64,000 bases of DNA, taken from NCBI GenBank assembly GCA_041651235.1, contig JBAZJQ010000001.1:558449-622448 (forward strand). The letters are read 5' to 3'. This stretch comes from Candidatus Pacearchaeota archaeon. Lineage in GTDB: Archaea; Nanobdellota; Nanobdellia; Pacearchaeales; GW2011-AR1. Positions 7,466-57,789 of the stretch are shown in pieces. Made by a program: the position numbers and the translations under genes. Each line of letters opens with the position of its first letter. Within the stretch, counting starts at the first letter, position 1. The notes under the pieces were generated by a model that was not told where the DNA came from, made no database searches, and saw only the letters and a program-made list of their open reading frames with translations.

Positions 7466-9829
7466 TTAAAATTCCCCTAATTTCATTTGCTTTTTGCCTT
7501 CTATTAATTGATTAATATCTACATTGAAAACTTCAAAGATGTTTTCAACTGCTGGAAGAATCTGATTGTTTAAATAATAATTAATATCATATTTTCCTGA
7601 TTCATCAATCATCTTAGCTCTGTCTCTTACAAGTGCTTTTTTATTATCTGATTCTGCAATATAATATTGAATTAACATGCCTAAATTAATTGGAATATTT
7701 TTTGCAATCATTTTTCTTGCAATTGCAATATGAGGAGTATTTGCTTTGTATTCATCAATTGATTTTTTTAGCTGAGTTCTTATTACTAATTCAGATAATT
7801 CAATTTTTCTTTCTTTAATTTTCTTAATTGTTTCTTTAATATATTCCAGTGCTTTTTTTTCATTTCCATCTGTAAGAATTAATTTTAGTATTTTGCTTTG
7901 AACTTCTCTTGCTAAATTACACCAGTCTCTTCTTACTGTTTCAAATCCTCTTATTTTTAGTTTATTATCTTCTGTAATAAGTGCATATTTCTTTTTTGCT
8001 CCAAATTCCCCTGTTCTTTTTGTTACCCAGATTCCTCTTTTATAGAAATCTTCCAGTTCCAGCTCCATTATTCCTGGAAGATGTTCATTAATTTGTTTTA
8101 ATAAATCAAGAGCTTGTTTTTTTGATTTGTTATCCAGACTTACTGCAATACTATCGGTATCACTATAAATTGGCTGAAAATTTGATTGTTCAAATTTTTT
8201 AATTGCTGATTTTATGTTTTCTCTTGCAAAATAAGCTGTTGATGCAGCTGCTTCTAAACAATAATATCTTGCTCCGAAAAATCCTTGATAACCATAAGCT
8301 GCATTTGCTATTAGCTTAAATGCATTGCTTCTTGCTTTTAAAATTGGATTGGGATTTTTATTATATTCTTTTTTAAATTCTCTTCTTTTTTCAATAATCT
8401 GCTTTAGAAGTTCAGGAAAAAATCCTGGTTTTTTTGAAAAATAAACTTTTTTATTATTTATTTCTGAAATTATATTTGTTTTTTCTTTGGATAGAGTTGA
8501 TAGACTGAGATTATAAGACACAATAACACTTGCATACATACTTGAGAAATCAAACATAGCAATATCATTGTATAATCCTGGTTTGGGCTGGAAAACAAAA
8601 GCTCCTTCATATTTTTCTCTTTCAATTCTATTTGAAATTTCTTCATGACTTGCTTTGTGCTTTGCTATTTCATTGAATTTATGGAGATTATGAAGAATAT
8701 AGTTTTCAACATTTTGAGACATTGAATCTCTAGATACATCATAAGGAGGTTCTTGAAGAACTCTTGAAAATTCTAAAATATCTGGCCAAACCTTTTCAAA
8801 TAATTTATATGTTAAAACTGAATCTTGAAGATTATATTCAAAAAAATCTTCCCAATGCTTTTGTGTATGTTCTGTTTTATTCATATCAATATGAGAAATA
8901 TCATTCTTTTTTTCTCCAATAAGTTCATTTGCAACTTCATTTAAAGAAAGAGTTTCTGACTGGAGATACTGGCTGTATGCTACTTGTATAAATCTAAATA
9001 AATCTACATGAGTTATTCCTTTTATTTTTCCTGATAAAACTCTTCCTCTGGAAAAAATAGGAGCAGAATTATCTAATCCTAGTGATAATTTTACTTTGTT
9101 ATGCTCTGCTCTTGCTCTTAAATAAGGCAAATCAAAACCATCTGAAAAATAACCTACTAAAAAATCTGGGGAATATTCTTTTATATATTTTACAAAAGCT
9201 TCTAGCATTTCTGCTTCATCTTTAAAATATTCAACAAAGGATTTTTTTGATTGTTTTTTCCAGGTAAGAACTTTTTTGAAATTATTACCTACTAATGAAA
9301 TCATTAAGATTTCTCCTTTTCCTATTTCAAATTCATTTGTTTCAATATCATAAGCTAGAAATTTCGGATGAAATTGAATATCTGATTGTGATTGTGTTAT
9401 TTTCTCTGCTTTAATTACAAAATCTACTTCTAAATTAGAACATTCATTATTTGATGCAAGTTCTCCTTCAATTTCCCATAACGTTAAAGGTGTTAGCTTA
9501 TTTTCAATTAAGAATTTAGTTATTATATTGATATCATTTTCATAAACTTCAAACTTTTCTGCAATTTCTTTTGTTTGTTTTGATGAGGAGGTATAAACTT
9601 TTAGTGCTTTAACTGGTTTTCCTAAGAAATTTTTGGATTCTTCTTGTATCTTGATTGTATCTAGTTTTTTCTTTGCCTTTTCTATATCTTTAATTATATA
9701 GCACCAGTCATTAAATTGCTTTAAGATACATAATCTCTTGCCTTTCTCATTTCTCCCATATACTTGAATATAGGTTTGATTATTTAGTTCAAAGGATTCA
9801 AAATTAATAGGGATAAATGTGAATTTCAT
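7466..9829 (-). CDS. polB: family-B DNA polymerase
   Basis: Exo I YDIETN, Exo II YNLQDS, Pol A DFSSMYASVIVSYNLS, Pol B KLIANAAYGY, Pol C YSDTDSI; 787 aa, no intein. Confidence 0.95.
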   Translation of the reverse strand: MKFTFIPINFESFELNNQTYIQVYGRNEKGKRLCILKQFNDWCYIIKDIEKAKKKLDTIKIQEESKNFLGKPVKALKVYTSSSKQTKEIAEKFEVYENDINIITKFLIENKLTPLTLWEIEGELASNNECSNLEVDFVIKAEKITQSQSDIQFHPKFLAYDIETNEFEIGKGEILMISLVGNNFKKVLTWKKQSKKSFVEYFKDEAEMLEAFVKYIKEYSPDFLVGYFSDGFDLPYLRARAEHNKVKLSLGLDNSAPIFSRGRVLSGKIKGITHVDLFRFIQVAYSQYLQSETLSLNEVANELIGEKKNDISHIDMNKTEHTQKHWEDFFEYNLQDSVLTYKLFEKVWPDILEFSRVLQEPPYDVSRDSMSQNVENYILHNLHKFNEIAKHKASHEEISNRIEREKYEGAFVFQPKPGLYNDIAMFDFSSMYASVIVSYNLSLSTLSKEKTNIISEINNKKVYFSKKPGFFPELLKQIIEKRREFKKEYNKNPNPILKARSNAFKLIANAAYGYQGFFGARYYCLEAAASTAYFARENIKSAIKKFEQSNFQPIYSDTDSIAVSLDNKSKKQALDLLKQINEHLPGIMELELEDFYKRGIWVTKRTGEFGAKKKYALITEDNKLKIRGFETVRRDWCNLAREVQSKILKLILTDGNEKKALEYIKETIKKIKERKIELSELVIRTQLKKSIDEYKANTPHIAIARKMIAKNIPINLGMLIQYYIAESDNKKALVRDRAKMIDESGKYDINYYLNNQILPAVENIFEVFNVDINQLIEGKKQMKLGEF

Positions 9830-9867
9830 GATTTTAAGAATAGAAACAGATATTTAAGGATTGGGGT

Positions 9868-10137
9868 TTATTTTTTATAGATATTATCGTGATGATCAAA
9901 ATCATCAAAATTAATTGTATCTGTTGACTTAATATATTGGAATATTAATACAAAATGTCCAATGTGAACTCTCTTTGAATCTTTCATATTATATCTTAAA
10001 TTTTTATAATGTTCAATATCATAAGAATTAACAATTTCATTTATTTTTTTAATAAGCTGTTCGTGAATATTAGGATTTTTCTTTGATAGTTTTTTGATTT
10101 TATCATTAAGATGCTCACTAATCTGAAAATTATGCAT
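9868..10137 (-). CDS. RelE/ParE-superfamily toxin-like protein
   Basis: 89 aa; KNLRYNMKDSKRVHIGHFVLIFQY...HHDNIYKK resembles the RelE/YafQ core and C-terminal H..Y. A small antitoxin-like gene lies immediately upstream. Confidence 0.5.
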   Translation of the reverse strand: MHNFQISEHLNDKIKKLSKKNPNIHEQLIKKINEIVNSYDIEHYKNLRYNMKDSKRVHIGHFVLIFQYIKSTDTINFDDFDHHDNIYKK

Positions 10138-10156
10138 TTTTACCTCTTTTGAATTT

Positions 10157-10393
10157 TTAGTCTGTAGATTTTCTTAAATCTTCAATAGAATTATACTTAA
10201 TATATTTTCCTTTTCTTATTTTCTCAAGTTTTTCTAAGTATTCTGGTCTTAATTCTGGTTCAAGAAAACTTTCTTCATAAGCTCTTGCTATAAAAGCAAC
10301 TGCTTCACTTTTGTTTTTTAATCCAAATTTTGCTTTAATAATATTTAATATTCTATCTTCTCTTTCATTAATGTCAATTATATTCTGAACCAT
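10157..10393 (-). CDS. antitoxin-like small protein (DUF2683-like)
   Basis: Trimmed to ATG 10393: MVQNIIDINEREDRILNIIKAKFGLKNKSEAVAFIARAYEE...EPELRPEYLEKL. Gap to the toxin-like gene is 19 nt. Confidence 0.45.
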   Translation of the reverse strand: MVQNIIDINEREDRILNIIKAKFGLKNKSEAVAFIARAYEESFLEPELRPEYLEKLEKIRKGKYIKYNSIEDLRKSTD

Positions 10394-10517
10394 TTTATAA
10401 TATATTATAATAAAATATAATGTTTTATTATATTTAAATGTTACTATTTTATATCTGTATTTACTTCTAAATGGTAACAATAATAATGTTTATATACTAG
10501 TTTTGCTTATAAATAAT

Positions 10518-10730
10518 ATGGAAATTAATGGTATAAGAATTGGATCTGGAAGACAGGTTATACCTGTTCAAAGCGTTGAAAATAGAGGAAATTATGGCCA
10601 TGGAAGTTATGATGAGCAAAGAAATAGAAGACCTTTGGTTAGCTCAAGGTTTGATTTTGGATATGATTATAAAGGCAGGAAATGGATATTTAGAGATAAT
10701 GAAAATAATGAGGTTGATTTAAAAGCATAA
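10518..10730 (+). CDS. hypothetical small protein, gene 1 of a 3-gene operon
   Basis: 70 aa from ATG 10518; stop lies 1 nt before the next start. Confidence 0.4.
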   Translation: MEINGIRIGSGRQVIPVQSVENRGNYGHGSYDEQRNRRPLVSSRFDFGYDYKGRKWIFRDNENNEVDLKA

Positions 10731-10731
10731 A

Positions 10732-11277
10732 ATGAGCAGACAAGGATTATTATTTGGAGAATTACCACAGGAAGAACGAGAATCACATTTAGAAGAAATT
10801 ACATATGTACCTGGAAATGCAAGAATAGCATCTGTACAGAGGGGAGATAATCTTACTTTCTATAGGTTATGTAATGAACAAGGATTAGAGCCTGAAGAAT
10901 GCTATAGAAGTCAATATGAACAAGGAAGATTGGATTTTGAAAAACTCGTTTTAGAAAATAATTTGGGGGAAGTTGTTGGAAATATTGGTCCGACATCTTA
11001 TAAAAAACAAGAAAGAATATCAAGAAAAACTTCTAGTAGAAAAAGTAAAAATCAAGATAAATATCCTTTGCTTTTAGCTGCTGCTAGGCAAGAAGGAGTT
11101 AGATCTGATGATGTTTATGAAGATATAGAGACTAAAAGAAAGCATTTAAAACAAATAATGGGATATAGGAATTTAATAGGCTCAAAAGGAGTAAGAATCA
11201 GAATTGAGGATGTTAATGCTGAAAGAATCGGAAAAGCATATCAAGAACATATTAATATGGCTAGGAAATATGAATGA
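10732..11277 (+). CDS. hypothetical protein, gene 2 of a 3-gene operon
   Basis: 181 aa; ATGA overlap with gene 3. Confidence 0.5.
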   Translation: MSRQGLLFGELPQEERESHLEEITYVPGNARIASVQRGDNLTFYRLCNEQGLEPEECYRSQYEQGRLDFEKLVLENNLGEVVGNIGPTSYKKQERISRKTSSRKSKNQDKYPLLLAAARQEGVRSDDVYEDIETKRKHLKQIMGYRNLIGSKGVRIRIEDVNAERIGKAYQEHINMARKYE

Positions 11278-11921
11278 TGGAATCTATAGATCAACAAAAA
11301 TTAGAACAAATTCTTGAAGAGTTGAATAGAAAGGGGATTAGTAAAAAATATATAAGTTCTATTGGCAAGGATATTTCATCTAGGCGAAGGTATCATCCTC
11401 TTTTTTCTGGAGATTTTAAAGAGATTCAAGAAGTTCATCAAATGGATTGTTTTTTTTCAACACCAGAAAAACCAATTTTAGCAACATATGGATTAGCTAA
11501 TTGTTTGGGAGTTTTAGCATATGACCCCCTAAAGAAAATAGCATTTTTAGGACATTCTGATGCTTTTTCTTATAAGTATAAAGGAGAAGATAAACTAGGA
11601 CATCCTTCAGTAAATGCACATGTATCAAGATTCTTCTGGGATTTAAGAGATAGAAAAGATAATTATTTACTTGATGCTTGGATTGTTATTGGGAGTAATC
11701 CAGATAATAAGGCTATAGAGACAACTGAAAATACATTCAAGGATTTAAATAATAGCCCATATTTTTCAGGTGTTAGAATAAGAAAACTTGAAAGATTAAA
11801 TGTTAAGGATGATGGAAGTATAGGGATTGACTCAAGGACAGGTAGATTATTTTCTTATGATCCTAAATTAAATCCTCTTCCTAGACAAGAGGGATTTTGG
11901 AGCCAAGTTAAACTATTTTAA
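11274..11921 (+). CDS. CheD-like (Cys/His deamidase-fold) protein, gene 3 of the operon
   Basis: YGLANCLGVLAYDPLKKIAFLGHS matches the CheD catalytic core pattern GLGSCV.V...D...K.....H (nucleophile Cys, His about 17 residues later). Confidence 0.45.
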   Translation: MMESIDQQKLEQILEELNRKGISKKYISSIGKDISSRRRYHPLFSGDFKEIQEVHQMDCFFSTPEKPILATYGLANCLGVLAYDPLKKIAFLGHSDAFSYKYKGEDKLGHPSVNAHVSRFFWDLRDRKDNYLLDAWIVIGSNPDNKAIETTENTFKDLNNSPYFSGVRIRKLERLNVKDDGSIGIDSRTGRLFSYDPKLNPLPRQEGFWSQVKLF

Positions 11922-11982
11922 AGAAATATTTCATATAAGATTTAATGCAAATTTTTATTAATACTTATTTATTATATTTTTC

Positions 11983-13008
11983 ATGGGATTACAAATAGGT
12001 GAGATTATAACCAAAAATGAAATTAAGTTTTCTGATTTAAAGGGAAAGATAATTGCTGTTGATGCATTTAATGCAATTTATCAGTTTCTTACTACAATAA
12101 GACAGCCAGATGGAACTCCTTTAAAAGATTCTAGTGGAAATGTAACTAGTCATATATCTGGGTTGTTTTATAGAAATATGAGCTTAATTTTAGAAGGAGT
12201 TAAGTTAATTTATGTTTTTGATGGTGAAGCTCCTGAGCTAAAGAAAAAAACAAGAGAAAATAGAGAAGGTATCAAAGAGCAGTATAAAGAGAAATACAAA
12301 AAAGCTGTTGAAGACGAAGATGTTGAAGCAATGGGAAAATATGCAAGATTTGAAACTAGATTAGATAAAGAAAAAATTGAAGAGAGCAAGGAATTATTAG
12401 AAGCAATGGGTATTGCTGTTGTACAAGCTCCTTCAGAAGGAGAAGCTCAAGCTAGTTATTTAGCTAAAAATAAAACAGCTTATGCTGTTGCTAGCCAGGA
12501 TTATGACTGCTTGATGTTTAAATGCCCTTTATTAATTCAGAATTTAAGTTTAGCTAGAAAGAGAAAAACTATTTCAGGTTATAAAGAAGTTTTTCCGCAG
12601 GTTATTCAGTTAGATAGTGTGCTTGCTGAATTAGAAATTAATCAAGAGCAATTAATTTGTCTAGGAATTTTATGTGGAACTGATTATAATCCTGGAGGTG
12701 TAAAAGGATTAGGGCCTAAAAAATCTTTGAAAATAGTAAGAGAATATAAAACAAAAGAAAAGATTTTTGATGCTATTGAGAATGATGAGAAATTTGAAAA
12801 ATATGAATTAGACTTTGACTGGAAAGAAATATATGAAGAAATTGAAAATCCAAAAGTTAAAGATGTCAAAATTGAATTTCCTAAAATAAATAAGGAAAAA
12901 ATAAGAGAGATATTAAGAAGCCATGATTTTTCAGAAGAAAGAATAAATAATCAGTTAGAGAAAATTGATGAGTTGAAAAAACAGAAATCGCAAAAAACAC
13001 TTTTCTGA
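11983..13008 (+). CDS. fen: flap endonuclease 1
   Basis: MGLQIGEII...GKIIAVDAFNAIYQFL, SEGEAQASYL, SQDYDCLMF, LGILCGTDYNPGGVKGLGPKKSL (H3TH). Confidence 0.95.
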   Translation: MGLQIGEIITKNEIKFSDLKGKIIAVDAFNAIYQFLTTIRQPDGTPLKDSSGNVTSHISGLFYRNMSLILEGVKLIYVFDGEAPELKKKTRENREGIKEQYKEKYKKAVEDEDVEAMGKYARFETRLDKEKIEESKELLEAMGIAVVQAPSEGEAQASYLAKNKTAYAVASQDYDCLMFKCPLLIQNLSLARKRKTISGYKEVFPQVIQLDSVLAELEINQEQLICLGILCGTDYNPGGVKGLGPKKSLKIVREYKTKEKIFDAIENDEKFEKYELDFDWKEIYEEIENPKVKDVKIEFPKINKEKIREILRSHDFSEERINNQLEKIDELKKQKSQKTLF

Positions 13009-17506: not shown

Positions 17507-18802
17507 CTACTCCGAAAAGCTAGTTTTTAATGCACTTGGAGCTTCTCCACCATGCCAGGTGAATCTTGGCCTTACTCTTATTGGATATAATCTTTCTGAA
17601 TTATCATCTAAGATTACTGCAGAACCTTTTGAAGAAGGAAGCTGATTCATTGTTTTTTGAATGTTTTCTAATAAATAACTTTGCATAATTTCATTTAGCG
17701 CTTCTCTGTCTTTTTTGTTTGTAAGTTTATGAGACATTACAATATCTGATTGAGTCATAACATCTCTGTGAATTACTCCGGGTTGCTGGGTTGCAAGAAC
17801 CATTGATATTCCGGGCTGTCTCCCTTCCCTTAATAATTGAACAAGAGCATTTGTTGCAGGAGTTTTTTCATTCATTGGAAGAAATTCATGAGCTTCATCA
17901 ATAAAAAGCCAAATCATTGGCATCTCATTTATTTTTTTTGTTGAAAATCCTCTTTGAATCGAATCAATTTCTTCTTTTTTTCTTGCTAGTATTCTTTGAT
18001 TGAATAGCTTCTTTGAAATTAATCCTATTAATAATGCTCTTACATTGAAGGTTGATGTTGAAGAATAAACAGATAAGTCTAATATAGTTGTTATTCCAGG
18101 ATTAACAAGATCTTCTATTTTTGTTGCTTGTTCATTTTTGTTTGCAAACACTTTCCAGGATTTTGCTGCTTCAAATAAAGAAATAGCTGCTTTTCTAGTA
18201 TCTTCTGTTGATTCATTGTCTTTTTTAATCTCTTGAATTATCTCTTCTAAATCGAAATTTTCTTTTAAGTTATAAATTATTTTTTGAATTAAAACTGAAA
18301 TAGGTTCAGTCATACTTAGATTAAAAATAGAAAGCCAATCTTCAATATCTAACTCAGATACGGCTAGTGCAAGTTTTTTATCAACAGGAATTTGTCTTTT
18401 TTCATATTCTTTGAAATATCCTGCAGGGGCCCACACAACAACTGGAAGATTTTTTGATTTTAACTGCCAGTCAGCTAGTAGTTCTTGTTCTTTTTCATTT
18501 TTGTATTTCATTGTCCAGAAGATCCCCATTGTATCAAAAATTATTGGAGCAATATTATTTTTTACTTCATTTGGCAAATCAGAAATTTCTTCTGCAATTA
18601 CTCCTATTGTATATGATTTACCTGAGCCTCTTTTTCCTGCAATCAAAACTACATGGCTTCTTATAACATCCATCCAAATTAAATTAGAAAGAGAGGTATA
18701 ATTTCCCATTGTAACATAACCTTTTCCAAGATAAACTAACCCTTTATCACCAAATTTTTCTTTATCAGATTTAGTTCTTCCTATTATAATATCATATGCC
18801 AT
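17507..18802 (-). CDS. HerA/FtsK-superfamily (DUF87-like) P-loop ATPase
   Basis: Walker A AGKRGSGKSYT, Walker B WLFIDEAHEFLP, 431 aa. Confidence 0.7.
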   Translation of the reverse strand: MAYDIIIGRTKSDKEKFGDKGLVYLGKGYVTMGNYTSLSNLIWMDVIRSHVVLIAGKRGSGKSYTIGVIAEEISDLPNEVKNNIAPIIFDTMGIFWTMKYKNEKEQELLADWQLKSKNLPVVVWAPAGYFKEYEKRQIPVDKKLALAVSELDIEDWLSIFNLSMTEPISVLIQKIIYNLKENFDLEEIIQEIKKDNESTEDTRKAAISLFEAAKSWKVFANKNEQATKIEDLVNPGITTILDLSVYSSTSTFNVRALLIGLISKKLFNQRILARKKEEIDSIQRGFSTKKINEMPMIWLFIDEAHEFLPMNEKTPATNALVQLLREGRQPGISMVLATQQPGVIHRDVMTQSDIVMSHKLTNKKDREALNEIMQSYLLENIQKTMNQLPSSKGSAVILDDNSERLYPIRVRPRFTWHGGEAPSALKTSFSE

Positions 18803-19968: not shown

Positions 19969-20334
19969 ATGAAGATTTCTGAATTAAAAACAAATCAAGG
20001 GAATGTTGAAGTAGAAGGGACAATTAAAGAAATTGGTGAAATAAGGACTTTTAATAAATTTGGAAGAGAATTAAGAGTTGCTAATGCTATTTTAAGTGAT
20101 GATTCTGGAAGTGTTAAATTAACTTTATGGAATGATGATGCAACTAGATTCAGCCAAGGAGATAAAATCAAGATAAGCAATGGTTATGTTGGAGAATTTC
20201 AAGGTGAAAAGCAATTATCTTCTGGAAAGTTTGGAAAAATAGAAAAATTAGGCTCAGGTCCTAAATCTAAAGATGATACAGATGAGATAATTGAAGAGTT
20301 AGGTGAAGTTGAAGAAGAATCTGGAGATTATTAA
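19969..20334 (+). CDS. OB-fold single-stranded nucleic-acid-binding protein (SSB/RPA-like)
   Basis: Trimmed to ATG 19969. VEVEGTIKEIGEIRTF..FGRELRVANAILSDDSGSVKLTLWND OB-fold pattern plus an acidic C-terminal tail DDTDEIIEELGEVEEESGDY. Confidence 0.55.
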   Translation: MKISELKTNQGNVEVEGTIKEIGEIRTFNKFGRELRVANAILSDDSGSVKLTLWNDDATRFSQGDKIKISNGYVGEFQGEKQLSSGKFGKIEKLGSGPKSKDDTDEIIEELGEVEEESGDY

Positions 20335-20344
20335 TAAATTATTG

Positions 20345-20403
20345 GATGAATTTTTTATAATATAAAATTTAAATGCTGAATTGATGATTAAGATGTTTAT
20401 GAT
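20345..20403 (+). repeat. intergenic modular repeat, locus 5 (D+B)
   Basis: GATGAATTTTTTATAATATAAAATTTAAATGCTGAATTGATGATTAAGATGTTTATGAT; begins 11 nt after the stop. Confidence 0.7.
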
Positions 20404-20455: not shown

Positions 20456-21958
20456 TCATATTACTCTTCTTTCTCTTTCTGGTATTTGTTTTGAAGTTCT
20501 TTTTTTACGTTTATATTCAATATATCTTGATTTTGCATCTAAATATACTTCAGGAATATTTCCATGCATATAAAAATCTCTATTTAATCCTTTATAATTA
20601 AATACACATTTTCCATGTGAACTGGAAAGTCTCATTAATGTCATAGGACTTCTATTTAATAAATCTCCTAAATCTGAATAAGAGAGACTATGTCTATTTT
20701 TTAATACAAATCCAAGGATAAATCTCGCTTTCATACCATTTTCATCTCTTGAATCTGATAAAATTTCTTGTTTCTGGAGCTTTAAGTCTTGATATGCAAA
20801 ATCATATAATTTATTCAAATCTAATTCAATTTGTTTTTCATCTTTTTTATTTTTTAAATAATTTTTATCTTCTTTATTTTGCTGTGGATATAGCCCCCAG
20901 ATTTTTTTAAAATCTTCTTCAGGGTTTCCTGTTGGAATAAATTCATTCCCATTTAAATAACTCTTCACTTTTCTACAAGCTAATATAACTGTTGCATGAT
21001 TTTTGTCTCCCATTATTCTTCCTATGTTTGGATAGCTTCCAATATGATCTCCATTAATTGTAGGGCTGTCTTGAAAATTTTCTCTTAATAAAAACATTAC
21101 TAATTGTCGTATTTTGCTTATTTCTCTTGTTTTTTTACTTCCCTCTATATCCTCTCTAGTGATTCCTTTTTCTTGTATTATTTCATATAATCTGCCTAAA
21201 TATCCATCAAAGTTTGTTTGAGTAATTGTTTCTTTTGTTTTTTCTTCAAGGTTTGTTCCTTGTTGGGTGAGATAGTCAGTTACATCAGGATCATTGGTAT
21301 ACCATACTCCTGCTTTTAAGGCATTAGTAATTACTCTTTTCATTTTTGCTTGTTGTTCAAAAAAAGTTTGTTCTTGATATTTTGGTTTAGGTCTAAATCT
21401 TATTTCTGCATAGTATTGATCAGGTGTTCCTATTTTTCTTTTAGTTAATATTTCTCCTATAGTTGTTAGTTGTTCTAAAAATGATTCTATTTTGTTATCT
21501 CTTTCTGGGTCAGTTACAGGTGCTGCAATTCTTAATTTGTATAAGTTATTTTCTTCAGGTTCAAAAACAAGATTTAATATAACTTTTTCTTCAGAATTTG
21601 CTAATTGTTCTAAATCTGGGTCTGAAATTCTTAGTTTTCTTTGTAGTGTAAGCTGATGCATTACTGCTAGAGGGGTTGTTTTTATTCTTGTAACTTGATA
21701 TCCTTCAATTAAATTATCTATTATTGGTTGGAAAGCTTGCAAATCTTCTTCTTGAGTTTTTCTTGGAATTAACTGATTCTCTCTTTTTACATATAATGGA
21801 GGAATAGGATAATCTTTTAATTGGTCTGTTCTAACAACAAAAATTTGTTCTTTTGGAGGTATGACTTCAACAATAGATGCATTAGAAGAAAGAGTTATTA
21901 TTTGAGATTTTTGACTATTTGGAATATCTGTTGTTTCTTCTTTGATATCTTGTATCAT
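20456..21958 (-). CDS. protein with two DnaA domain-IV-like (Bac_DnaA_C) HTH modules, third gene of the RFC operon
   Basis: KKTREISKIRQLVMFLLRE...IGRIMGDKNHATVILACRKV parallels E. coli DnaA [19 protein letters not shown]...[20 protein letters not shown]. A weaker second copy is SRDENGMKARFILGFVLKN..SYSDLGDLLNRSPMTLMRL. ATGA overlap with the rfcL stop. Confidence 0.6.
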   Translation of the reverse strand: MIQDIKEETTDIPNSQKSQIITLSSNASIVEVIPPKEQIFVVRTDQLKDYPIPPLYVKRENQLIPRKTQEEDLQAFQPIIDNLIEGYQVTRIKTTPLAVMHQLTLQRKLRISDPDLEQLANSEEKVILNLVFEPEENNLYKLRIAAPVTDPERDNKIESFLEQLTTIGEILTKRKIGTPDQYYAEIRFRPKPKYQEQTFFEQQAKMKRVITNALKAGVWYTNDPDVTDYLTQQGTNLEEKTKETITQTNFDGYLGRLYEIIQEKGITREDIEGSKKTREISKIRQLVMFLLRENFQDSPTINGDHIGSYPNIGRIMGDKNHATVILACRKVKSYLNGNEFIPTGNPEEDFKKIWGLYPQQNKEDKNYLKNKKDEKQIELDLNKLYDFAYQDLKLQKQEILSDSRDENGMKARFILGFVLKNRHSLSYSDLGDLLNRSPMTLMRLSSSHGKCVFNYKGLNRDFYMHGNIPEVYLDAKSRYIEYKRKKRTSKQIPERERRVI

Positions 21959-23154
21959 TTTATCTCTGATAATAATTCCTGCTTTTTCTCTTTTAAATAT
22001 TCCTGTTCTTTATCATCTAGATCTAATGACTCATAATCTTTTTGAGAGAATATTAAAGGGAACAAAAAGCTTTCTTTCATCGCTTTCTTCTTAGATATAT
22101 GATTAAATTGAGCATATTTTGATACTATTGATTTCTTTTTTGCATTTTTCTGGTTTGAGAGCCAAATTTTTAGTATTCTTGAAGGTCTTTTATATCCTGT
22201 GAATTTTTTGTATTTAATTTTAGTTGCAGAAGATATTCCTGCTGATAAAAAGAAGTTCTCATAAACTAAAAATCTCCAGTATTGCTGTCTATATATTCTT
22301 CCTTTAAATAAATCTGCTTTGCTTAAACTATCATAAGCTTTTGCTAATGCCTGCCCTTGATATTCCATAGGAATATTTTCTTCTACCCATAGAATTATCT
22401 CATCTAGTTCCATCTGAGTTTCATCTAATATAGAAAGTGTTTTTTTGTTTGGAGATTCTTGGAATATTTTTTTTAATGCATTGAAAATGCTTTCTTCTTT
22501 TTCTCTTTCACTTATTTCTTCAATAAATGCATCTTCACCAAGGGAAAGAACTGATTGCAAGTCATTTAATGCTGCTCTTATATCCCCTCTTGATTTACTT
22601 GAGATTAAATTTAATGTTTCTGGCTTCAAAGTCCTATTTTCTTTTTGAAGAACTGCATGAAGAATATCTAATACAATCTCTTGTTTTAGCTCTTTTAAGC
22701 TAACTAGCTGGCATTTTTTTCTTAGTAGACTGAATTTTTGCTGCCAAATATCATTTGCAGTTATAATAATTGGGTGGGGTGTTTTGTCAATTAGCGCGAT
22801 TAATTCTGGAAGTCCTCCTCTGTCCGAGGCTGTTATTCCATCTGCTTCATCCATTAAAATTAGCTTTCCTTTTTTAAATAAAGATTGCTGTTTTATTGCA
22901 GGAGATAAAACTTCTTCTAATTTTGAACGATTTCTCAAATCACTTGCATTTAGTTCAAATAATTCTAAATTTAATTCATTTGCAAGTGCAATTGCAATTG
23001 ATGTTTTTCCTGTTCCAACAGGACCGCTTAGTATTAAGGCTCTTTTTAATGGAAATTTTTTGAAAAATATTTGAACTTCCTGGATAACTGAGTCTTGTCC
23101 CTTTATTTCTGAGAATTTTTTTACACGATATTTTTCAATTAATGGAAGAGTCAT
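21955..23154 (-). CDS. rfcL: replication factor C large subunit
   Basis: Walker A LSGPVGTGKTS, Walker B LILMDEADGI; overlaps rfcS by 4 nt. Confidence 0.85.
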   Translation of the reverse strand: MTLPLIEKYRVKKFSEIKGQDSVIQEVQIFFKKFPLKRALILSGPVGTGKTSIAIALANELNLELFELNASDLRNRSKLEEVLSPAIKQQSLFKKGKLILMDEADGITASDRGGLPELIALIDKTPHPIIITANDIWQQKFSLLRKKCQLVSLKELKQEIVLDILHAVLQKENRTLKPETLNLISSKSRGDIRAALNDLQSVLSLGEDAFIEEISEREKEESIFNALKKIFQESPNKKTLSILDETQMELDEIILWVEENIPMEYQGQALAKAYDSLSKADLFKGRIYRQQYWRFLVYENFFLSAGISSATKIKYKKFTGYKRPSRILKIWLSNQKNAKKKSIVSKYAQFNHISKKKAMKESFLFPLIFSQKDYESLDLDDKEQEYLKEKKQELLSEIK

Positions 23155-24125
23155 TTTATAATGCCTTTGCCAGCAAGAACAAATCCTGCTAAAAGAGCTT
23201 CTAATTGAATAAATTCATCACTGCCTTCAACTAATCTAAATTCAACTTCCCCTGTTTTCTCTGTTAACCGAACTTTAAGCTCATCATCAATCTGAAGATT
23301 CCATATTTCTTTTTGAATTGATTTTATAATATCTGTTCCTGAAACAGATTCTTTAAGCATAACCTCTAATAATTTTTCTTTTGATTTAATAAAATCTCCT
23401 GAAAGAGCATATTCTAGAACAATTTTAATGTCTGCTGGTTTTGCACTTGAAGCTAAGGTATTAATTAAATCAGGGGTTATTGAAGGAGAAATTGATGCAG
23501 ATGCTTGCAATAAGTTAATAACTCTTCTGCAGTCTCCTTCTGAAGCTTCATATAATGATTCTATTGTTACATCTGAAATTTGAAGTTTTTCTTTTTCTGC
23601 AATTAATCTTATTCTTTTTTCTATATCTTTTTTTTCTAATAGTTTAAATCTAAAAATAGCACATCTTGACTGAATAGGGTCTATTATTTTTGAAGAGTAG
23701 TTGCAGGACATAATAAATCTGCAGGTTGAAGTGTAGTTTTCCATTGTTCTTCTTAAAGCCTGTTGAGCTTCTCTTGTTAATGCATCTGCTTCATCTAAAA
23801 AAATAACTTTAAAAGGGACATTTCCAATTGCTTTTGTTCTTGCAAAATCCTTTACTTTTTGCCTTACAACATCAATTCCTCTTTCATCAGAAGCATTTAA
23901 TTCTAAGTAATTTTCTTTCCAATTAATCCCAAATAATTCCCTTACAATTATTAGAGCTAGTGTTGATTTTCCTGTTCCAGCAGGACCTGCAAATAGTAAA
24001 TGAGGTATATTAAGAGATTTAGTTAGATTTTTTGTCTTTTTTATTATTTCATCCTGCCCTACAACTTCTTCAAATTTTTTAGGTCTATATTTTTCAGTCC
24101 AAATAGCAGTATTGTTATTATCCAT
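23151..24125 (-). CDS. rfcS: replication factor C small subunit
   Basis: WTEKYRPKKF, FAGPAGTGKST, VIFLDEADALT, SRC motif PIQSRCAIFRF. Confidence 0.95.
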   Translation of the reverse strand: MDNNNTAIWTEKYRPKKFEEVVGQDEIIKKTKNLTKSLNIPHLLFAGPAGTGKSTLALIIVRELFGINWKENYLELNASDERGIDVVRQKVKDFARTKAIGNVPFKVIFLDEADALTREAQQALRRTMENYTSTCRFIMSCNYSSKIIDPIQSRCAIFRFKLLEKKDIEKRIRLIAEKEKLQISDVTIESLYEASEGDCRRVINLLQASASISPSITPDLINTLASSAKPADIKIVLEYALSGDFIKSKEKLLEVMLKESVSGTDIIKSIQKEIWNLQIDDELKVRLTEKTGEVEFRLVEGSDEFIQLEALLAGFVLAGKGIIK

Positions 24126-24148
24126 CTTTTAGTAAAAATCGGAAAGTC

Positions 24149-24158
24149 TTTTTATAAA
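24149..24158 (-). promoter_or_regulatory. TATA-box-like element upstream of rfcS (suggests a leaderless transcript)
   Basis: Minus-strand TTTATAAAAA ends 24 nt upstream of the rfcS ATG; no SD in between. Confidence 0.35.
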
Positions 24159-24250
24159 GATTGTTATAATGGGATGTATGGTAGATAAAAAGGTATTAAT
24201 AATATAAAAAATATACAATAAGATATCTGTTATTTAGCTTAATGTCCGTA

Positions 24251-24560
24251 GTTAAGATGTTTGTTCTATAAGATATTGATATTTATAATTTATTAAGACA
24301 TATGTTATGCATAGGATATTAAGATGTTGATGATGATTTTTACTGAATTTTTTATAATCTTATAGAACAAACATTTTGTAGATGAGAAGATTAAAATGTT
24401 TTTGACATTTATTATTAATTGATAATTATTTTAATATTAATGAGAGTATTTTGATGAATAGATGTTTTGTTGTTTGTCTTAAGAAGATATAGATATATTA
24501 CTATATTTGGAATGTTAAGGTCTTATACTTTATACAGAAGAGGGTTAAGATGTTTATAAT
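24251..24560 (+). repeat. intergenic modular repeat, locus 6 (densest cluster; several A/B/C/D modules plus an internal inverted repeat)
   Basis: ATAATTTATTAAGACAT, GCATAGGATATTAAGATGTTGATGAT, TACTGAATTTTTTATAATC, TTGTAGATGAGAAGATTAAAATGTTTTTGAC, AATAGATGTTTTGTTGTTTGTCTTAAGAAGATATAGATAT, ACAGAAGAGGGTTAAGATGTTTATAAT. Also an imperfect (18/19) inverted repeat AAGATGTTTGTTCTATAAG (24254) / CTTATAGAACAAACATTTT (24359). Confidence 0.75.
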
Positions 24561-24613
24561 TAATCTGATAAATATATATTAATATAATTTTATTAAAATA
24601 TTAAGAATTAAGC

Positions 24614-24724
24614 TTATTCTCCTCTTCTTTGCTTTCTTTTCTTCTTTACACGTCTAAGTCTTTTTCTCTGCCATTTCCATCTCATTTGGTTTTTCTTTTT
24701 CCAACGTCTTGAGCTTCTTTTCAT
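24614..24724 (-). CDS. very basic 36-aa peptide, probable ribosomal protein L41e
   Basis: Below the ORF-track cutoff. MKRSSRRWKKKNQMRWKWQRKRLRRVKKKRKQRRGE resembles the K/R-rich L41e pattern (..RWKKKRMRRLKRKRRK..). Confidence 0.45.
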   Translation of the reverse strand: MKRSSRRWKKKNQMRWKWQRKRLRRVKKKRKQRRGE

Positions 24725-24874: not shown

Positions 24875-25861
24875 TTAGTTATAATTATTCTTGAATAAAT
24901 TACCAAATCCTGGAGTCCACTCATCAGTTATCATTAAAACTGAATCTACTGTCCTTATTACTTCAGGAAATTCTTTTTTTAAATTTTCTATGATTTTGTA
25001 ATATTCTTGATAATTGTTTACAATTAATTCGGGTTCTATCTGAGATAGGTTTCTAATAAAGTATTGAACATTCGGCAGAGATGAAATATAACTTAAAAGT
25101 CTTTTTTCATCTTCTTTTGTGTATTTTTCTAATTTTATTATAGCTTTATATAACTCTAACCCTAACTTGTTAAGATCAACCCCGATTCTATATTGAGTTA
25201 TTACTTCCTTTTCTTTTAATTTTTTTAGTCTATTTTTGATAATAATTTCTGTAGACCTAATTCTTTTAGCCAGTTCTGTCAGAGAAATTCTTCCGTTATT
25301 TACTATTTGAGCAAGAATAGCATAATCTTTCTGGTCAAGATCATTATTTACAACTTCGCCAGCAAACATTGTAGGCTGGGTTATTTCATTTGTAAAATAC
25401 ATTTTTGAATATTGCTTAACATCAACAAGAATGCCATCTTCTTGATCAACGATTATTTTATTAAATTGAGACATAAAGTCATTTTTTATTTCATAAAATT
25501 CATAATCTGTTTTTGCAAAAATGGAGATTATTAAATCCCAGCTCCCAGAACATTCTCCCATCCAATAAACTCTCCCTAATGAACGCAAATATTTAAACAA
25601 CTTATCTTTTTCTAAGGGGATATTCTTTAGTTTGACATAAATTTTATAGGCTTTAAATCCCATTTTATTAGGATTAATTGCTGTTTGAAATCCAGTGATT
25701 ATCCCTCTTTTGATTAATTGATTAATTCTATATTCAACTGCTTGGCGAGATTTTCTAATTTTCTTAGCTAAAATTGTTGAAGGAACCCTACAATTTTTAT
25801 CTAGTTCTGCAAGAAGTTTTTTATCGGCCTTGTCTAATAAAAGCTTGTTTATTTCAACCAT
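24875..25861 (-). CDS. tandem (double) Lrp/AsnC-family transcriptional regulator, paralog of 5921..6880
   Basis: Trimmed to ATG 25861. LDKADKKLLAELDKNCRVPSTILAKKIRKSRQAVEYRINQLIKRGIITGF and LDQKDYAILAQIVNNGRISLTELAKRIRSTEIIIKNRLKKLKEKEVITQY. Confidence 0.8.
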   Translation of the reverse strand: MVEINKLLLDKADKKLLAELDKNCRVPSTILAKKIRKSRQAVEYRINQLIKRGIITGFQTAINPNKMGFKAYKIYVKLKNIPLEKDKLFKYLRSLGRVYWMGECSGSWDLIISIFAKTDYEFYEIKNDFMSQFNKIIVDQEDGILVDVKQYSKMYFTNEITQPTMFAGEVVNNDLDQKDYAILAQIVNNGRISLTELAKRIRSTEIIIKNRLKKLKEKEVITQYRIGVDLNKLGLELYKAIIKLEKYTKEDEKRLLSYISSLPNVQYFIRNLSQIEPELIVNNYQEYYKIIENLKKEFPEVIRTVDSVLMITDEWTPGFGNLFKNNYN

Positions 25862-25959
25862 ATTTAGCATAAGAGATATATAGTTTATAAATATTATCAT
25901 TTATGCTTAAATATTAAAAGAAAGTTTAATATGCTTTATAATCTTGTGATGAATAACTA

Positions 25960-34985: not shown

Positions 34986-35135
34986 ATGCAAAAAAAGGTG
35001 ACTCTTAGCTTAGATTCTGAAACATATCAAAAATTCCAGGAATTTTGTGAAGAAAATGATATTATGCTTTCTAAAAGAATTGAGAGATTAATTAACAAAC
35101 ATTTAGAAGAAAATAAAAAAGGAGGAAAAAAATGA
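34986..35135 (+). CDS. ribbon-helix-helix (CopG-like) small protein
   Basis: Below the ORF-track cutoff. MQKKVTLSLDSETYQKFQEFCEENDIMLSKRIERLINKHLEE has an RHH pattern (beta strand VTLSLD plus two helices). Its stop overlaps the next start (ATGA). Confidence 0.5.
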   Translation: MQKKVTLSLDSETYQKFQEFCEENDIMLSKRIERLINKHLEENKKGGKK

Positions 35136-37666
35136 AAATAAAATACTTGAGTTTAATTTGTATTAGTTTTATTTTAATGCTAGTTTTAATTACTAATTTA
35201 TCTGCTGTTTGTACAGTTACTTTTGATAAAGATATTTATCATAATCAGGAAACAGTGACTGCAGCTATGTCTTGTTCAGAAGCAACTGAAAAATCAAAGA
35301 GTTATACTCTGAACTGGACAAATTCTTCTGGTTATCAATTAGAATTAGATACAGGAACAACCCCTGCTATCAGTGATACTCAATTTTTTAAAACATATGT
35401 TTTATCTCCTACATATAGTTCAGTTTATGGAGGAATTATTAATGCTACTTTAATTGGTTCTAATTTAGAAGGAAATGACTGGGCAAATGTAACTAATGCT
35501 GGTGCAAGTGATTTAGTTATTACTAATGCTAGTTTTACTTCAATTGTTTTACTTGGAAAAAGAATAGGGATAAAATTTGATATAAAAGACGAGAATAACA
35601 AAAAGATAAGTAATGCAAAATGCTCTGTTAATATCTTAGACAGTGGGAATAACCCAATAGACTCCTCTATCAGAGAATTTTATAGTTTTGATGGAAGAGC
35701 TAGTTTTACTCAAGAAATAACTAAAGATAGTTTTAATGAAGGAAGTGAATATAGAGCAGAAATTAGATGCACTTGTGGGGGAAACAACACAAATGAAGCT
35801 TGTTTTGATGAAGAGGGAACTGTAGTTATAAACAGCAAAGGAACTGCTTCTGGTCCTTTTGTTACAAATACTTGGCTGACTGTTAATACTTTAACTGATA
35901 AATCTATTTATCATATGAAAGACGAAATCTTTATTTGTGTTAATGTCACGAATGTAGATTCAAATTCTAGAGTCCCTATGCATATTTATAATCAAGTGAG
36001 ATGTAGCCGGGATTTAGACAATAATAGTGATTTAGATAGGGTTTTGATAATTTCAGATGATGAAGAACCTGATGAAAGGGGGATTTCAGTTAATACAACT
36101 CAAATGCAATGCAAAAGATTTGTTATTCCTGAATCGTCTTATTTGCAAGGGAGAAATTCACAATGTTATGCATCTACTACTGTTTGGGTTTTAGACCAAA
36201 ATAGAGAAAAAATTGTAAGCTATGCTACAACAAGTCCTGCATTTAATATAACTAGTGATGAACTAAATATAATTCCTGATTGGGAAAGAATCTCAGAATA
36301 TGTTTTTAATTCCATAATTAATTTAAGTGATTCTAATTTTGCTAATGTTAATGGAACTGGCATAGGCAATATAGATCTTAAATTACATAAAGTTTCCTCT
36401 ACAATTAAATCTTCTGAACAATATGGAGAAACAGAAATTGGTTTAGATAGTTTCGTTAACACTAAATATATAAAAAATATCACCGGGTATAACTTAACTG
36501 GTACTTTTACTCCTTATTTAGAAATTTTAGAAGATGGAAGTGTTGAAATTGAATTAAGAGATGTTGATATTTCTTCTAATGGATGGTACAATATAACTCT
36601 TGAATTTAATAGCTTTGAGGAAAGGCAAAGTTCTGCATTAGAAGGCATAGAAAACAAAACTGGAACCTTCCATTTAGATGTTAGCTGTCCTTCAACAGGA
36701 ACAATTGGAAATGATATGGATTGTGTAATTACTGCTTATGTTGAAGATTCTCAGTTAATGGAAAAAGAAGCTGATTTCACTTGTTATATTTCAGATGGGG
36801 TCTTTAGTTACAGTTCTGTTAATTTTAATCAAATGATTACAAGAACTCCTCTCTCTTTAACAAGAAGTTTTTCTGTTCCTTCTAGTTTTGTTTCTGGACA
36901 AAATTATATATTGCAGTGTTATGCAGATTATTATAATCTCGGAAGCAGAAGAGACAGCTTTTATGATACATTTATTGCTTCAACACCTGCAGAAGGAGGT
37001 GGAAGTTCAAGTGAAGGAGGTTCAGATAAAGGAATAAATGATAGTGGAAAAGCTCCAATAACTGGAGGAGTAGTTGATGAAGGAGATAATGAAACTCCTA
37101 TAAATATTATTGATTTGTTTAACGAAAAGCCTTATGTTGTTTATTTTGTCTTATTAATAGTTATACTAACTATAATTATTTTATTAATCAGGCATAGAAA
37201 ATGCAAAGATAGTTATCATGTTTCAAGCAAAACTAACTGGAAAGGTATTGTTGTTAGCATATTAAAATTCTTATTAGTTGTTATTATTTTTGCAGTTATA
37301 ATTATAGCTTTGGTTTATGGTTATCCAGCTCTTAAGAATAATTCAATACAATTGACAAGTAGTTCATATTCAATTTTGCAAGATAGCTTATTTAGAAATA
37401 TAATTTTAATAGGTTTTATTGTATTAATGATAATTATTTTGTTTAAAGCATTGAATTTAAGAGGAGAGATAAGATTTGGAGATAGCCCAAAATCTTATGA
37501 AGATAAGCAGTATTCTAAAATGCAGAATAATATTAATAAGATGGTATTAAAAAGAGAAATTGAAAGAGAAAAAGAAAGAATTAAAGATTCTTATAAAACA
37601 AGAAAAGTTTCTCCAGGAGAATTTAGCAGATTTCTTAATAAAATAGAAGATAAGATTGAAAAATAG
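35132..37666 (+). CDS. large Cys-rich surface protein with signal peptide and C-terminal TM helices
   Basis: 844 aa; signal MKIKYLSLICISFILMLVLITNLSAV; many N-x-S/T sequons; Gly/Ser linker; three C-terminal TM helices; SD AAGGAGG. Confidence 0.7.
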   Translation: MKIKYLSLICISFILMLVLITNLSAVCTVTFDKDIYHNQETVTAAMSCSEATEKSKSYTLNWTNSSGYQLELDTGTTPAISDTQFFKTYVLSPTYSSVYGGIINATLIGSNLEGNDWANVTNAGASDLVITNASFTSIVLLGKRIGIKFDIKDENNKKISNAKCSVNILDSGNNPIDSSIREFYSFDGRASFTQEITKDSFNEGSEYRAEIRCTCGGNNTNEACFDEEGTVVINSKGTASGPFVTNTWLTVNTLTDKSIYHMKDEIFICVNVTNVDSNSRVPMHIYNQVRCSRDLDNNSDLDRVLIISDDEEPDERGISVNTTQMQCKRFVIPESSYLQGRNSQCYASTTVWVLDQNREKIVSYATTSPAFNITSDELNIIPDWERISEYVFNSIINLSDSNFANVNGTGIGNIDLKLHKVSSTIKSSEQYGETEIGLDSFVNTKYIKNITGYNLTGTFTPYLEILEDGSVEIELRDVDISSNGWYNITLEFNSFEERQSSALEGIENKTGTFHLDVSCPSTGTIGNDMDCVITAYVEDSQLMEKEADFTCYISDGVFSYSSVNFNQMITRTPLSLTRSFSVPSSFVSGQNYILQCYADYYNLGSRRDSFYDTFIASTPAEGGGSSSEGGSDKGINDSGKAPITGGVVDEGDNETPINIIDLFNEKPYVVYFVLLIVILTIIILLIRHRKCKDSYHVSSKTNWKGIVVSILKFLLVVIIFAVIIIALVYGYPALKNNSIQLTSSSYSILQDSLFRNIILIGFIVLMIIILFKALNLRGEIRFGDSPKSYEDKQYSKMQNNINKMVLKREIEREKERIKDSYKTRKVSPGEFSRFLNKIEDKIEK

Positions 37667-56637: not shown

Positions 56638-57789
56638 ATGGGTTTTGAAGAATTTTTGCCTGAAAGTAATGAAAATGAAGAGGTAGATGATTCATTATCT
56701 GAAGATAATGAAAGAACACGAAAATTGGATAAAATAGGGCAGAACCAGGTTTATGACCTTGTTACTGGAAAGCAACCAGATTGGCAGTCTATTATTTATG
56801 ATTTAATTCATACAGAACAGCTAGATCCTTGGGATGTGGATATTGTTGTTTTGACTAATAAATATTTTGAGAAATTATATGAATTAGAGGAACAAGTTGA
56901 GGGGGAAACTGATTTCTATATCTCAAGCAAAGTTCTTTTAGCTGCTGCTTTGCTTTTAAGAATCAAATCTGAATTTTTACTTAATAAACACATAAAAAGC
57001 ATAGATGAGATTTTATTTGGTAAAAAAGAAACTAAAGCAGTTATTATTGAAAGAATTAATATTGATGAAGATGAACTACCTCTTTTAATTCCTAAAACCC
57101 CCTTACCTAGACAGAGAAAAGTTACTTTAGCTGAATTAATGGAGGCATTAGATAATGCAATTAATACGGAATCTAGAAGAATTAAGAGAGAGGTTGCTGT
57201 TAAAAGAGCTCATAAGCTTTCTCATGTAGATATACCTCAATTTAGGAAAATTGATTTAAAAGATAGAATTAAGCAGTTTTATGCTAGGGTTTTAACCAGT
57301 ATTAAAAAAAAGGCACAAAAACCAGAAAAACATTTGAATAAAGTTAATTATCATAGTTTAATTGGAACTGAAAAAGAAGAAAAATTAGCTTGTTTTCTTC
57401 CTTTGTTGCATTTGAGTAATACCAGGAAATTATGGTTAGAGCAAGAAAAACATTTAGATGATATTTGGATTTATTTGTATGAATATTTTGATAAAAATAA
57501 AGATTCATTTTTTGAAGAACTGGAGAAAGATTTAGTAGGTTCATCTGATAATGAAATAACACAAGAATTAGTTGCAGATTTAGCTTACAAAGCTGCTGAA
57601 GAAGCTGAAGCAGAATCAGAAGCTAGTCCTCTTGATAAAGCAAGAGCAAAAAGAGAAGAGAAAAAGAAAATGGAAGAAGAAATTAAAAGAGAGTTAGAAG
57701 CAGAGTTGGGAATAAAAAGTGAAATAGAAAGAATTAATAAAGAAGAAAAAATTGATGAAATTAGTGGATTTGATGAAGATGAAAATTAA
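56638..57789 (+). CDS. scpA: segregation and condensation protein A (ScpA/kleisin-like) with long acidic tail
   Basis: WQSIIYDLIHTEQLDPWDVDIVVLTNKYFEKL N-terminal pattern; winged-helix-like C-terminal region. Confidence 0.55.
   Translation: MGFEEFLPESNENEEVDDSLSEDNERTRKLDKIGQNQVYDLVTGKQPDWQSIIYDLIHTEQLDPWDVDIVVLTNKYFEKLYELEEQVEGETDFYISSKVLLAAALLLRIKSEFLLNKHIKSIDEILFGKKETKAVIIERINIDEDELPLLIPKTPLPRQRKVTLAELMEALDNAINTESRRIKREVAVKRAHKLSHVDIPQFRKIDLKDRIKQFYARVLTSIKKKAQKPEKHLNKVNYHSLIGTEKEEKLACFLPLLHLSNTRKLWLEQEKHLDDIWIYLYEYFDKNKDSFFEELEKDLVGSSDNEITQELVADLAYKAAEEAEAESEASPLDKARAKREEKKKMEEEIKRELEAELGIKSEIERINKEEKIDEISGFDEDEN

Follow-up and report, generated by a model that had tools for sequence, protein, structure and literature searches.

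Archaeal replication relies on Orc1/Cdc6 for initiation and on a eukaryote-like replisome. Here we describe X, the 500-aa product of the third gene in a replication factor C (RFC) operon of a DPANN archaeon with a tiny genome (Candidatus Pacearchaeota archaeon), which carries a helix-turn-helix (HTH) module homologous to domain IV of the bacterial initiator DnaA; the gene lies on a 64,000-nt stretch of the 647,740-bp contig JBAZJQ010000001.1 (assembly GCA_041651235.1), hereafter called the window. In E. coli DnaA, the DnaA box is contacted by R399, P423, D433, H434, T435 and H439 (PMC7561715). The domain is also known from proteins without an initiator role. HdaB of the Alphaproteobacteria consists of domain IV only, has lost R399, keeps L422 and binds the AAA+ protein HdaA (PMC7049699), and GafA, a regulator of the Rhodobacter gene transfer agent, is a non-initiator with an N-terminal DnaA-like DNA-binding domain (PMC9638019). 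A survey of 208 complete Nanobdellota genomes reported no bacterial dnaA (bioRxiv 10.64898/2026.05.13.725050). We found no paper on the X family, its linkage to RFC or the Planctomycetota-type recognition helix described below. Databases already tag X with PF08299 and name it an HTH protein, the NCBI label being 'MAG: helix-turn-helix domain-containing protein [Candidatus Pacearchaeota archaeon]'; what is new is the architecture, a variant within a known class of domains, together with the unexpected host and the accessory position.

With moderate confidence, we read X as an accessory, lineage-restricted and site-specific DNA-binding factor that is co-expressed with RFC, and as neither an initiator nor a core subunit of the clamp loader. 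The operon and the parts of X, with structural assignments from AlphaFold2 (AF2) where indicated, are:

23151..24125, minus strand: rfcS (324 aa), which opens the operon and encodes the small subunit of replication factor C (NCBIfam, Pfam)
21955..23154, minus strand: rfcL (399 aa), encoding a large subunit of replication factor C of the short type (NCBIfam)
20456..21958, minus strand: X, DnaA-domain-IV-like HTH protein (500 aa; Pfam PF08299)
21599..21958, minus strand: N-terminal extension, X residues 1-120 (AF2 and alignments)
21386..21589, minus strand: conserved beta-beta-alpha-beta-beta core, X residues ~124-191 (AF2 and family alignment)
21179..21385, minus strand: long helical linker, X residues ~192-260 (DSSP)
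20894..21178, minus strand: module 1, DnaA domain-IV-like, with the family tail F-x-P-T-G-x-x-x-x-D-[FY], X residues ~261-355
20519..20836, minus strand: module 2, degenerate DnaA domain-IV-like, with tail (DFYMHGNIPEVYLDAKSRY), X residues ~375-480
24151..24158, minus strand: TTTATAAA, candidate archaeal TATA box, separated from the rfcS ATG by 25 nt

As in other archaeal rfcS-rfcL operons, standard RFC subunits come first and the backbone is syntenic; the difference lies in the translationally coupled third gene, which only ~8% of the related loci sampled possess. Indeed, rfcS scores 455.6 bits against the NCBIfam equivalog NF001679 (cutoff 303) and matches Rep_fac_C and AAA in Pfam, and rfcL scores 330.9 bits against the equivalog NF003229 (cutoff 280). 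X itself shows no RFC or AAA similarity in Pfam and NCBIfam scans, and is therefore not an RFC subunit by homology. The initial annotation had joined rfcS, rfcL and the 500-aa open reading frame (ORF) pairwise by ATGA into one operon, and we could verify both the coordinates and the stop/start overlaps at the rfcS/rfcL and rfcL/X junctions (ATAAAATGACTCTT and GATAAAATGATACAA). The TTTATAAA box, which stands at an equal distance from rfcS in the syntenic loci L085 and L086, may act as the promoter, and the ATGA overlaps together with this upstream box therefore point to a single rfcS-rfcL-X transcription unit. Such overlaps are frequent here, joining 6 of the window's 37 pairs of co-directional neighbours; they show operon membership but are by themselves no proof of a physical complex. 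In relatives, the X gene starts anywhere from 17 nt before to 48 nt after the rfcL stop. Its GC content of 0.28, with 0.12 at third codon positions (GC3), resembles that of the neighbouring genes in this AT-rich window (28% GC), which argues against a recent arrival.

The homology of X to DnaA is clear. Against Pfam PF08299 (Bac_DnaA_C), X scores 67.5 bits (E 1e-18) over two stretches, well above the gathering cutoff of 31.5, and module 1 alone (~residues 261-331) still passes that cutoff with 55.8 bits (E 4.8e-15). The best matches in the PDB by phmmer are 1J1V, 8BTG and 3PVP (E 0.02-0.08), and the alignment with domain IV of E. coli DnaA (1J1V) is collinear apart from a 10-residue insertion between the module halves, just as the initial annotation had described it. 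That annotation had also proposed a second, weaker copy and the absence of an AAA+ module, and both proposals stand. Taken alone, module 2 (~residues 392-437) stays below the Pfam cutoff with 19 bits (E 0.0015) and is only 19% identical to module 1; its identity to the C-terminal module of the family member P0008 is 35%, with an invariant Y..Y.DA tail. However, when module 2 and its relatives were compared by hhalign with module 1 and bona fide DnaA domains IV, the two groups aligned over 98 columns with a probability of 99.6% (E 4e-24); module 2 is therefore a true homologue despite its weak Pfam score, and the claim of two modules is correct. It keeps the fold-defining positions, the tail and two Arg positions, whereas its recognition helix reads NRSPMTLMRLSSSHGKCV in place of the K-[ND]-H-A-T-V signature and the H-A-T-V helix is gone. 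This second module is peculiar to the window protein among the members of the family that we examined.

In the Pfam scan, X matched neither AAA+ (PF00308) nor DnaA_N (PF11638), and against the DnaA equivalog TIGR00362 it reached 59 bits where the cutoff is 343.9, over profile positions 359-423 only. Thus, X cannot be a DnaA-type initiator. It shares with bacterial DnaA the HTH and a basic residue at the minor-groove position; it differs in lacking domains I-III with their AAA+ module, ATP switch and oligomerisation on origin DNA, in its archaeal host, in the fusion to an unrelated N-terminal domain, in the insertion and degenerate second copy, and in having no DnaA-box cluster nearby.

The contact positions of module 1 are occupied by K276, P310, N320, H321, A322 and L326, three of them conserved or conservatively replaced relative to E. 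coli and three changed. In an alignment of type-1 family members (A1; the types are listed further below), KNHATV, K276 and R284 are invariant. H-A-T and R284 are near-invariant in the wider family, where the rest of the protein falls to 28-38% identity, and the type-2 modules inspected by eye also have K at the position of K276. A contact face that hardly varies against such a fast-diverging background indicates selection on the DNA-binding face, and suggests that DNA binding is the selected function.

The same residues bear on a reading of X as a protein-protein modulator in the manner of HdaB. Here, the modules, and module 2 in particular, would bind an AAA+ partner, the RFC large subunit, and tune clamp loading, much as DnaA domain IV and HdaB bind the clamp-associated AAA+ proteins Hda and HdaA. 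A precedent exists, HdaB being a domain-IV-only protein that binds HdaA (PMC7049699). Moreover, X is translationally coupled to rfcL and remains with rfcL rather than rfcS when inserted genes part the two (L086 and the P0003 locus), and module 2 is what one might expect of such a binder, with the fold and tail kept and the recognition-helix signature lost. Against this, the DNA-contact residues are almost invariant in the X family, including the basic residue at the R399 position, and this retention, unlike in HdaB, supports a DNA-binding factor. The position of L422, the Hda contact, is Y, F, L or S across the family. Most relatives run RFC without X, and the ATGA overlaps are common in this genome. 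X and HdaB are alike in being derived from domain IV without an AAA+ module, and HdaB is functionally tied to a clamp-associated AAA+ replication protein; HdaB is short and domain IV only, whereas the X family is archaeal, 250-500 aa long and retains the DNA-contact residues. X itself, with 500 aa, a large extra domain, K276 at position 399 and Y309 at position 422, does not answer to the description of HdaB, and we regard a modulator of this kind as unlikely. The parallel with GafA is the reuse of a DnaA-type HTH in a non-initiator together with other domains. GafA differs in that its likeness to DnaA is much weaker (HHpred level), in its sigma-like C-terminal domain and in binding the omega subunit of RNA polymerase, and it is unrelated to X outside the HTH.

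The recognition helix of X has its counterpart in the Planctomycetota. A word-indexed protein search, run with the single sequence and with A1, brought up nothing but the query and one DnaA, P0002, which is 100% identical to a Pirellulales DnaA. A pattern-based scan of genome contigs found 80 Planctomycetota dnaA loci sharing KNHATV, most of them 45-51% identical to X over residues 265-345, and yielded no archaeal locus with a taxonomic label. The closest relatives of module 1 are indeed the C-termini of Planctomycetota DnaA, with 45-53% identity over ~75 residues and a similar aromatic-x-x-x-G motif after the HTH. In DnaA of the Sedimentisphaerales and Pirellulales, the NHATV signature and all six contact positions are identical to those of X, and a full-length protein from a Sedimentisphaerales metagenome-assembled genome (MAG; 467 aa, adjoining gyrA) also has an identical 12-mer, KNHATVILACRK. 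To see what such a helix reads, we combined Markov-based enrichment with position analysis over the 80 loci. TTTTCCACA is 6.7-fold over-represented, and TTWTNCACA boxes are concentrated directly upstream of dnaA, where the adjoining 1-kb bin holds 89 of the 127 boxes in loci with full flanks; clustering of exact 9-mers to derive the Planctomycetota box found nothing. This pile-up upstream of dnaA shows that the NHATV variant belongs to working, box-reading initiators. We infer from these sequence comparisons that module 1 derives from a bacterial DnaA C-terminus of Planctomycetota type and has a horizontal origin; it would have been acquired from bacteria and have since adapted fully to the base composition of its host.

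As for the Planctomycetota themselves, the boxes lie directly upstream of dnaA in MAGs of the Phycisphaerae, Sedimentisphaerales and Pirellulales (L002-L081), mostly as TTTTCCACA, and the DnaA helix of these genomes is K-N-H-A-T-V instead of R-D-H-T-T-V. This suggests that their oriC lies upstream of dnaA and that boxes of the canonical type remain readable to the variant helix.

The X family is sparse. Searched exhaustively with phmmer, a set of 1.84 billion representative proteins yielded 32 matches at E <= 1e-3. Types 1-3 have in common the beta-beta-alpha-beta-beta core, the long helical linker, the HTH module and the tail, and the members are arranged as follows:

Type 1 (P0003, P0004, P0005, P0007, P0018), 348-494 aa: N-terminal region, one module, tail F-x-x-T-G-x-x-x-D-Y
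Type 2 (P0008, P0009, P0013, P0021), 270-382 aa: smaller N-terminal core, common with type 3
Type 3 (P0006, P0010, and also L099, L101, L109): smaller N-terminal core
P0029 and P0031: more distant proteins, matching the module-2 region only

The proteins encoded around X are well conserved in relatives, with identities to the window proteins of 86-88% for rfcS, 66-72% for rfcL, 72-78% for herA and 63-70% for ssb; X reaches only 28-38%, in alignments that do not span the whole protein. Closest to module 1 in identity (54%) is P0017, a 195-aa protein in which a KNHATVIL-type HTH is fused to a C-terminal HNH nuclease motif, suggesting that homing-endonuclease-like proteins, too, use this HTH to bind DNA.

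The N-terminal ~250 aa of X have no match in Pfam, NCBIfam, PHROG or PADLOC, and Foldseek with the N-terminal model (mean predicted local distance difference test score, pLDDT, of 64) found nothing at E <= 1e-3 in the PDB or BFVD, in keeping with the impression of the initial annotation that the first ~230 aa resemble nothing familiar. Residues 1-52 have pLDDT below 50 in AF2 and are probably disordered. From about residue 60, the extension is common to type-1 relatives only and absent in type-2 and type-3 members; the beta-beta-alpha-beta-beta core, modelled with pLDDT ~80 within residues 60-240, aligns across all three types. DSSP places helices at residues 192-216, 224-233 and 237-263, and the length and sequence of this linker vary among relatives. 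In the full-length AF2 model (mean pLDDT 55), only residues 240-355 are confident, as helices with pLDDT 78-91; module 2 is below 50. A PIP-box-like motif noticed by eye, QEQTFF at ~residue 200, was rejected as neither canonical nor conserved.

We then considered the genes around X in nine members including the window, an unbiased sample found by protein similarity to X. X stands directly after rfcL in six of the nine and adjoins a replication gene in seven. The arrangements in relatives, and the gene convergent with X in the window, are:

P0003: rfcS, a 143-aa ORF, rfcL, X, convergent ssb
P0004: C-terminal fragment of rfcL, X, convergent ssb
P0005: rfcL, X; the contigs end at the X gene
P0007: rfcS, rfcL, X, convergent ssb, a 362-aa ORF, herA and, further on, trm5
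P0008: rfcS, three inserted genes, rfcL, X, convergent ssb, herA, trm5
P0010 (L170): X after aEF-1beta, followed by a co-directional RPA-type gene (OB and Rep_fac-A_C)
P0029 and P0031: strings of tiny co-directional ORFs resembling mobile-element DNA
Window, 19975..20334, plus strand: SSB/RPA-like single-OB-fold gene with an acidic C-terminal tail, convergent with X (Pfam)

The window ssb matches Ssb-like_OB, tRNA_anti-codon and REPA_OB_2 above the Pfam cutoffs. Replication neighbours thus occur in two arrangements, rfcL-X-ssb and X-RPA, which supports a DNA-binding factor connected with replication. A second sample was anchored on rfcL and comprised 80 metagenomic loci, 66 of them informative and annotated locally. 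Here, ssb lies within 300 bp of rfcL in 24 of the 66, other and unrelated genes occupy the rfcL-ssb slot in 37, and an X-like gene is present in 5 (~8%); none of the unannotated ORFs that follow rfcL elsewhere (93-311 aa) is related to X by the family hidden Markov model at relaxed thresholds. X is therefore an accessory, fast-evolving occupant of a variable slot and not a core component. The wiring of X to the clamp loader, as first proposed, is supported only in part: homologues are linked to replication genes, but X is found at few rfcL loci and the backbone is generally syntenic.

The slot itself (L091-L151) is a hot spot of gene-content variation, filled with other cargo in many relatives. 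A recurring minus-strand set of ~480-496, 260, 263 and 940-990 aa genes occupies it in L104 and L122, and unannotated co-directional ORFs of 239 aa (L091), 233 aa (L136) and 311 aa (L149 and L151) were also seen. In L085, the HerA-like gene (9556-11997, plus strand) contains an intein with a LAGLIDADG endonuclease, which the window herA lacks.

Such a slot raises the question of whether X is domesticated or selfish cargo of a mobile element, a module that landed between rfcL and ssb and persists without a role in host replication. The patchy distribution and very fast divergence fit this picture, as do the unrelated genes in the slot of relatives, the tiny-ORF strings around P0029 and P0031, the PHROG matches of two distant members (P0031, to a phage 'DnaA-like' family, and P0020, to another PHROG) and the nuclease fusion in P0017. 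However, alignment A1 found no relative in 2.9 million viral contigs, neither X nor P0003 and P0008 match any PHROG, and PADLOC has no match for X, P0003, P0007 or P0008. No integrase, repeats or tRNA-target signature flanks the X gene and its composition is fully host-like. Furthermore, deeply diverged members keep the same strand and a tight rfcL junction, suggesting long vertical residence. Mobile cargo therefore appears an improbable explanation to us.

A number of observations weigh against our own preference for an accessory site-specific DNA-binding factor. The backbone of rfcL, X where present, ssb, dsb, herA and trm5 is widely conserved, and the unrelated genes dsb and trm5 are as syntenic as the rest, so that a conserved position is weak evidence of functional wiring and may reflect general synteny rather than function. 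A fast pace of evolution and a patchy occurrence are likewise compatible with a selfish gene or one involved in conflict. Foldseek with the poor whole-chain model (mean pLDDT 55) found nothing in the PDB at E <= 1e-3 and so failed to confirm a structural match of module 1 to DnaA domain IV, and any role of the N-terminal domain is a guess. Lastly, our search for a binding site of X found none in the window or in the archaeal loci. TTWTNCACA occurs three times in the 64 kb against 9.5 expected, never near the operon; TTATCCACA and TTTTCCACA, with one mismatch allowed, are at chance level in the window; and DnaA boxes are no commoner in X-bearing than in X-lacking archaeal loci. A repeat, AACATCTTAA, drew our attention upstream of the operon, where the following elements lie:

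24126..24613: non-coding spacer upstream of rfcS, 488 bp, with three AACATCTTAA copies and an inverted repeat
24252, 24319 and 24545, minus strand: exact AACATCTTAA copies in the spacer
20388..20397, minus strand: a further exact AACATCTTAA copy (the fourth), 59 nt beyond the X stop codon
24254-24274 and 24357-24377: 21-nt inverted repeat, arms 95% complementary and 82 nt apart, not conserved in related loci

Of the five exact copies in the window, four flank the operon on the same strand, and one of the only two copies outside the spacer falls inside the 121-bp gap after X (p ~0.004, suggestive only). However, dinucleotide shuffling of the spacer produces some 10-mer in three or more copies 11% of the time, and AACATCTTAA is absent from all other X-bearing loci. 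As chance sequence is this repetitive and the repeat is not conserved, AACATCTTAA was rejected as a binding site. The spacer measures 488 bp because of the conserved 36-aa ORF that precedes it (24614-24724, minus strand); this highly basic product, MKRSSRRWKKKNQMRWKWQRKRLRRVKKKRKQRRGE, is probably ribosomal protein L41e and is also encoded upstream of rfcS in L085 and L086, its reading frame being shorter than ordinary ORF lists admit. Just beyond a tRNA-Gln and upstream of the L41e-rfc genes, a 341-aa protein (24875-25900, minus strand) carries two AsnC/Lrp-type winged-HTH domains.

The same results speak to whether X is associated with an origin, binding DnaA-box-like elements there and helping to recruit RFC or SSB as an add-on in bacterial style to Orc1/Cdc6 initiation. 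Origin recognition is the ancestral job of the domain, and the contact residues match those of box-reading DnaAs. X is linked to RFC and SSB/RPA genes, the surrounding region is rich in replication genes (PolB, FEN1, HerA-like, SSB and RFC), and the spacer upstream of rfcS is unusually long and has an inverted repeat. These points are outweighed by others. X has no AAA+ module, no DnaA-box cluster exists anywhere in the 64 kb, no orc1/cdc6 was found among the window ORFs scanned, and the cumulative GC skew does not turn at the rfc-X locus. Besides, ~90% of close relatives lack the X gene and must replicate without it, and conservation of the spacer repeats does not extend to other X-bearing loci. 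The initial annotation had suggested an origin-, repeat- or promoter-binding factor; our searches linked X to neither an origin nor a cluster of DnaA boxes nor a conserved repeat. We consider an origin factor very unlikely. The replication and repair genes around the operon include a family-B DNA polymerase (7466-9829, minus strand), FEN1 (XPG_N/XPG_I; 11983-13008, plus strand) and a HerA-like ATPase (17507-18802, minus strand), with ScpA (56638-57789, plus strand) further away. An 844-aa ORF (35132-37666, plus strand) has no Pfam match at E <= 1e-5.

How might an accessory DNA-binding factor of this kind work? Module 1 would dock on double-stranded DNA like DnaA domain IV, with K276 at the minor-groove (R399) position and P310, N320, H321, A322 and L326 at the major-groove contacts. 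The N-terminal core and the long helix may form an oligomerisation or partner-binding domain. X dosage would track that of the clamp loader because X is translated from the rfcS-rfcL transcript, and X would most likely regulate or mark sites on DNA that has a connection with replication (RFC, SSB/RPA), comparable to transcription factors of the GafA type. A bolder version, in which we place little confidence, has X as a DNA-site-specific adaptor for the sliding-clamp machinery, with the HTH at defined sites and the N-terminal domain or module 2 contacting RFC-L, SSB/RPA or PCNA. If that were true, X would steer the loading of clamps or the restart of replication to particular loci, and a bacterial origin-recognition module would have been rewired to the archaeal/eukaryotic-type replisome in DPANN archaea.

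To conclude, the domain with which bacterial DnaA reads DNA resides within an archaeal protein family and keeps the contact residues seen in Planctomycetota DnaA. The absence of X in most relatives limits its general importance, and if X is merely a transcription factor or a domesticated mobile gene, it makes a modest addition to the reused DnaA-type HTHs represented by HdaB and GafA. If, on the other hand, X recognises defined sites while also interacting with RFC or SSB, it would exemplify in nature the grafting of a bacterial replication module onto archaeal machinery, and would offer a handle on how replication is regulated in DPANN archaea.

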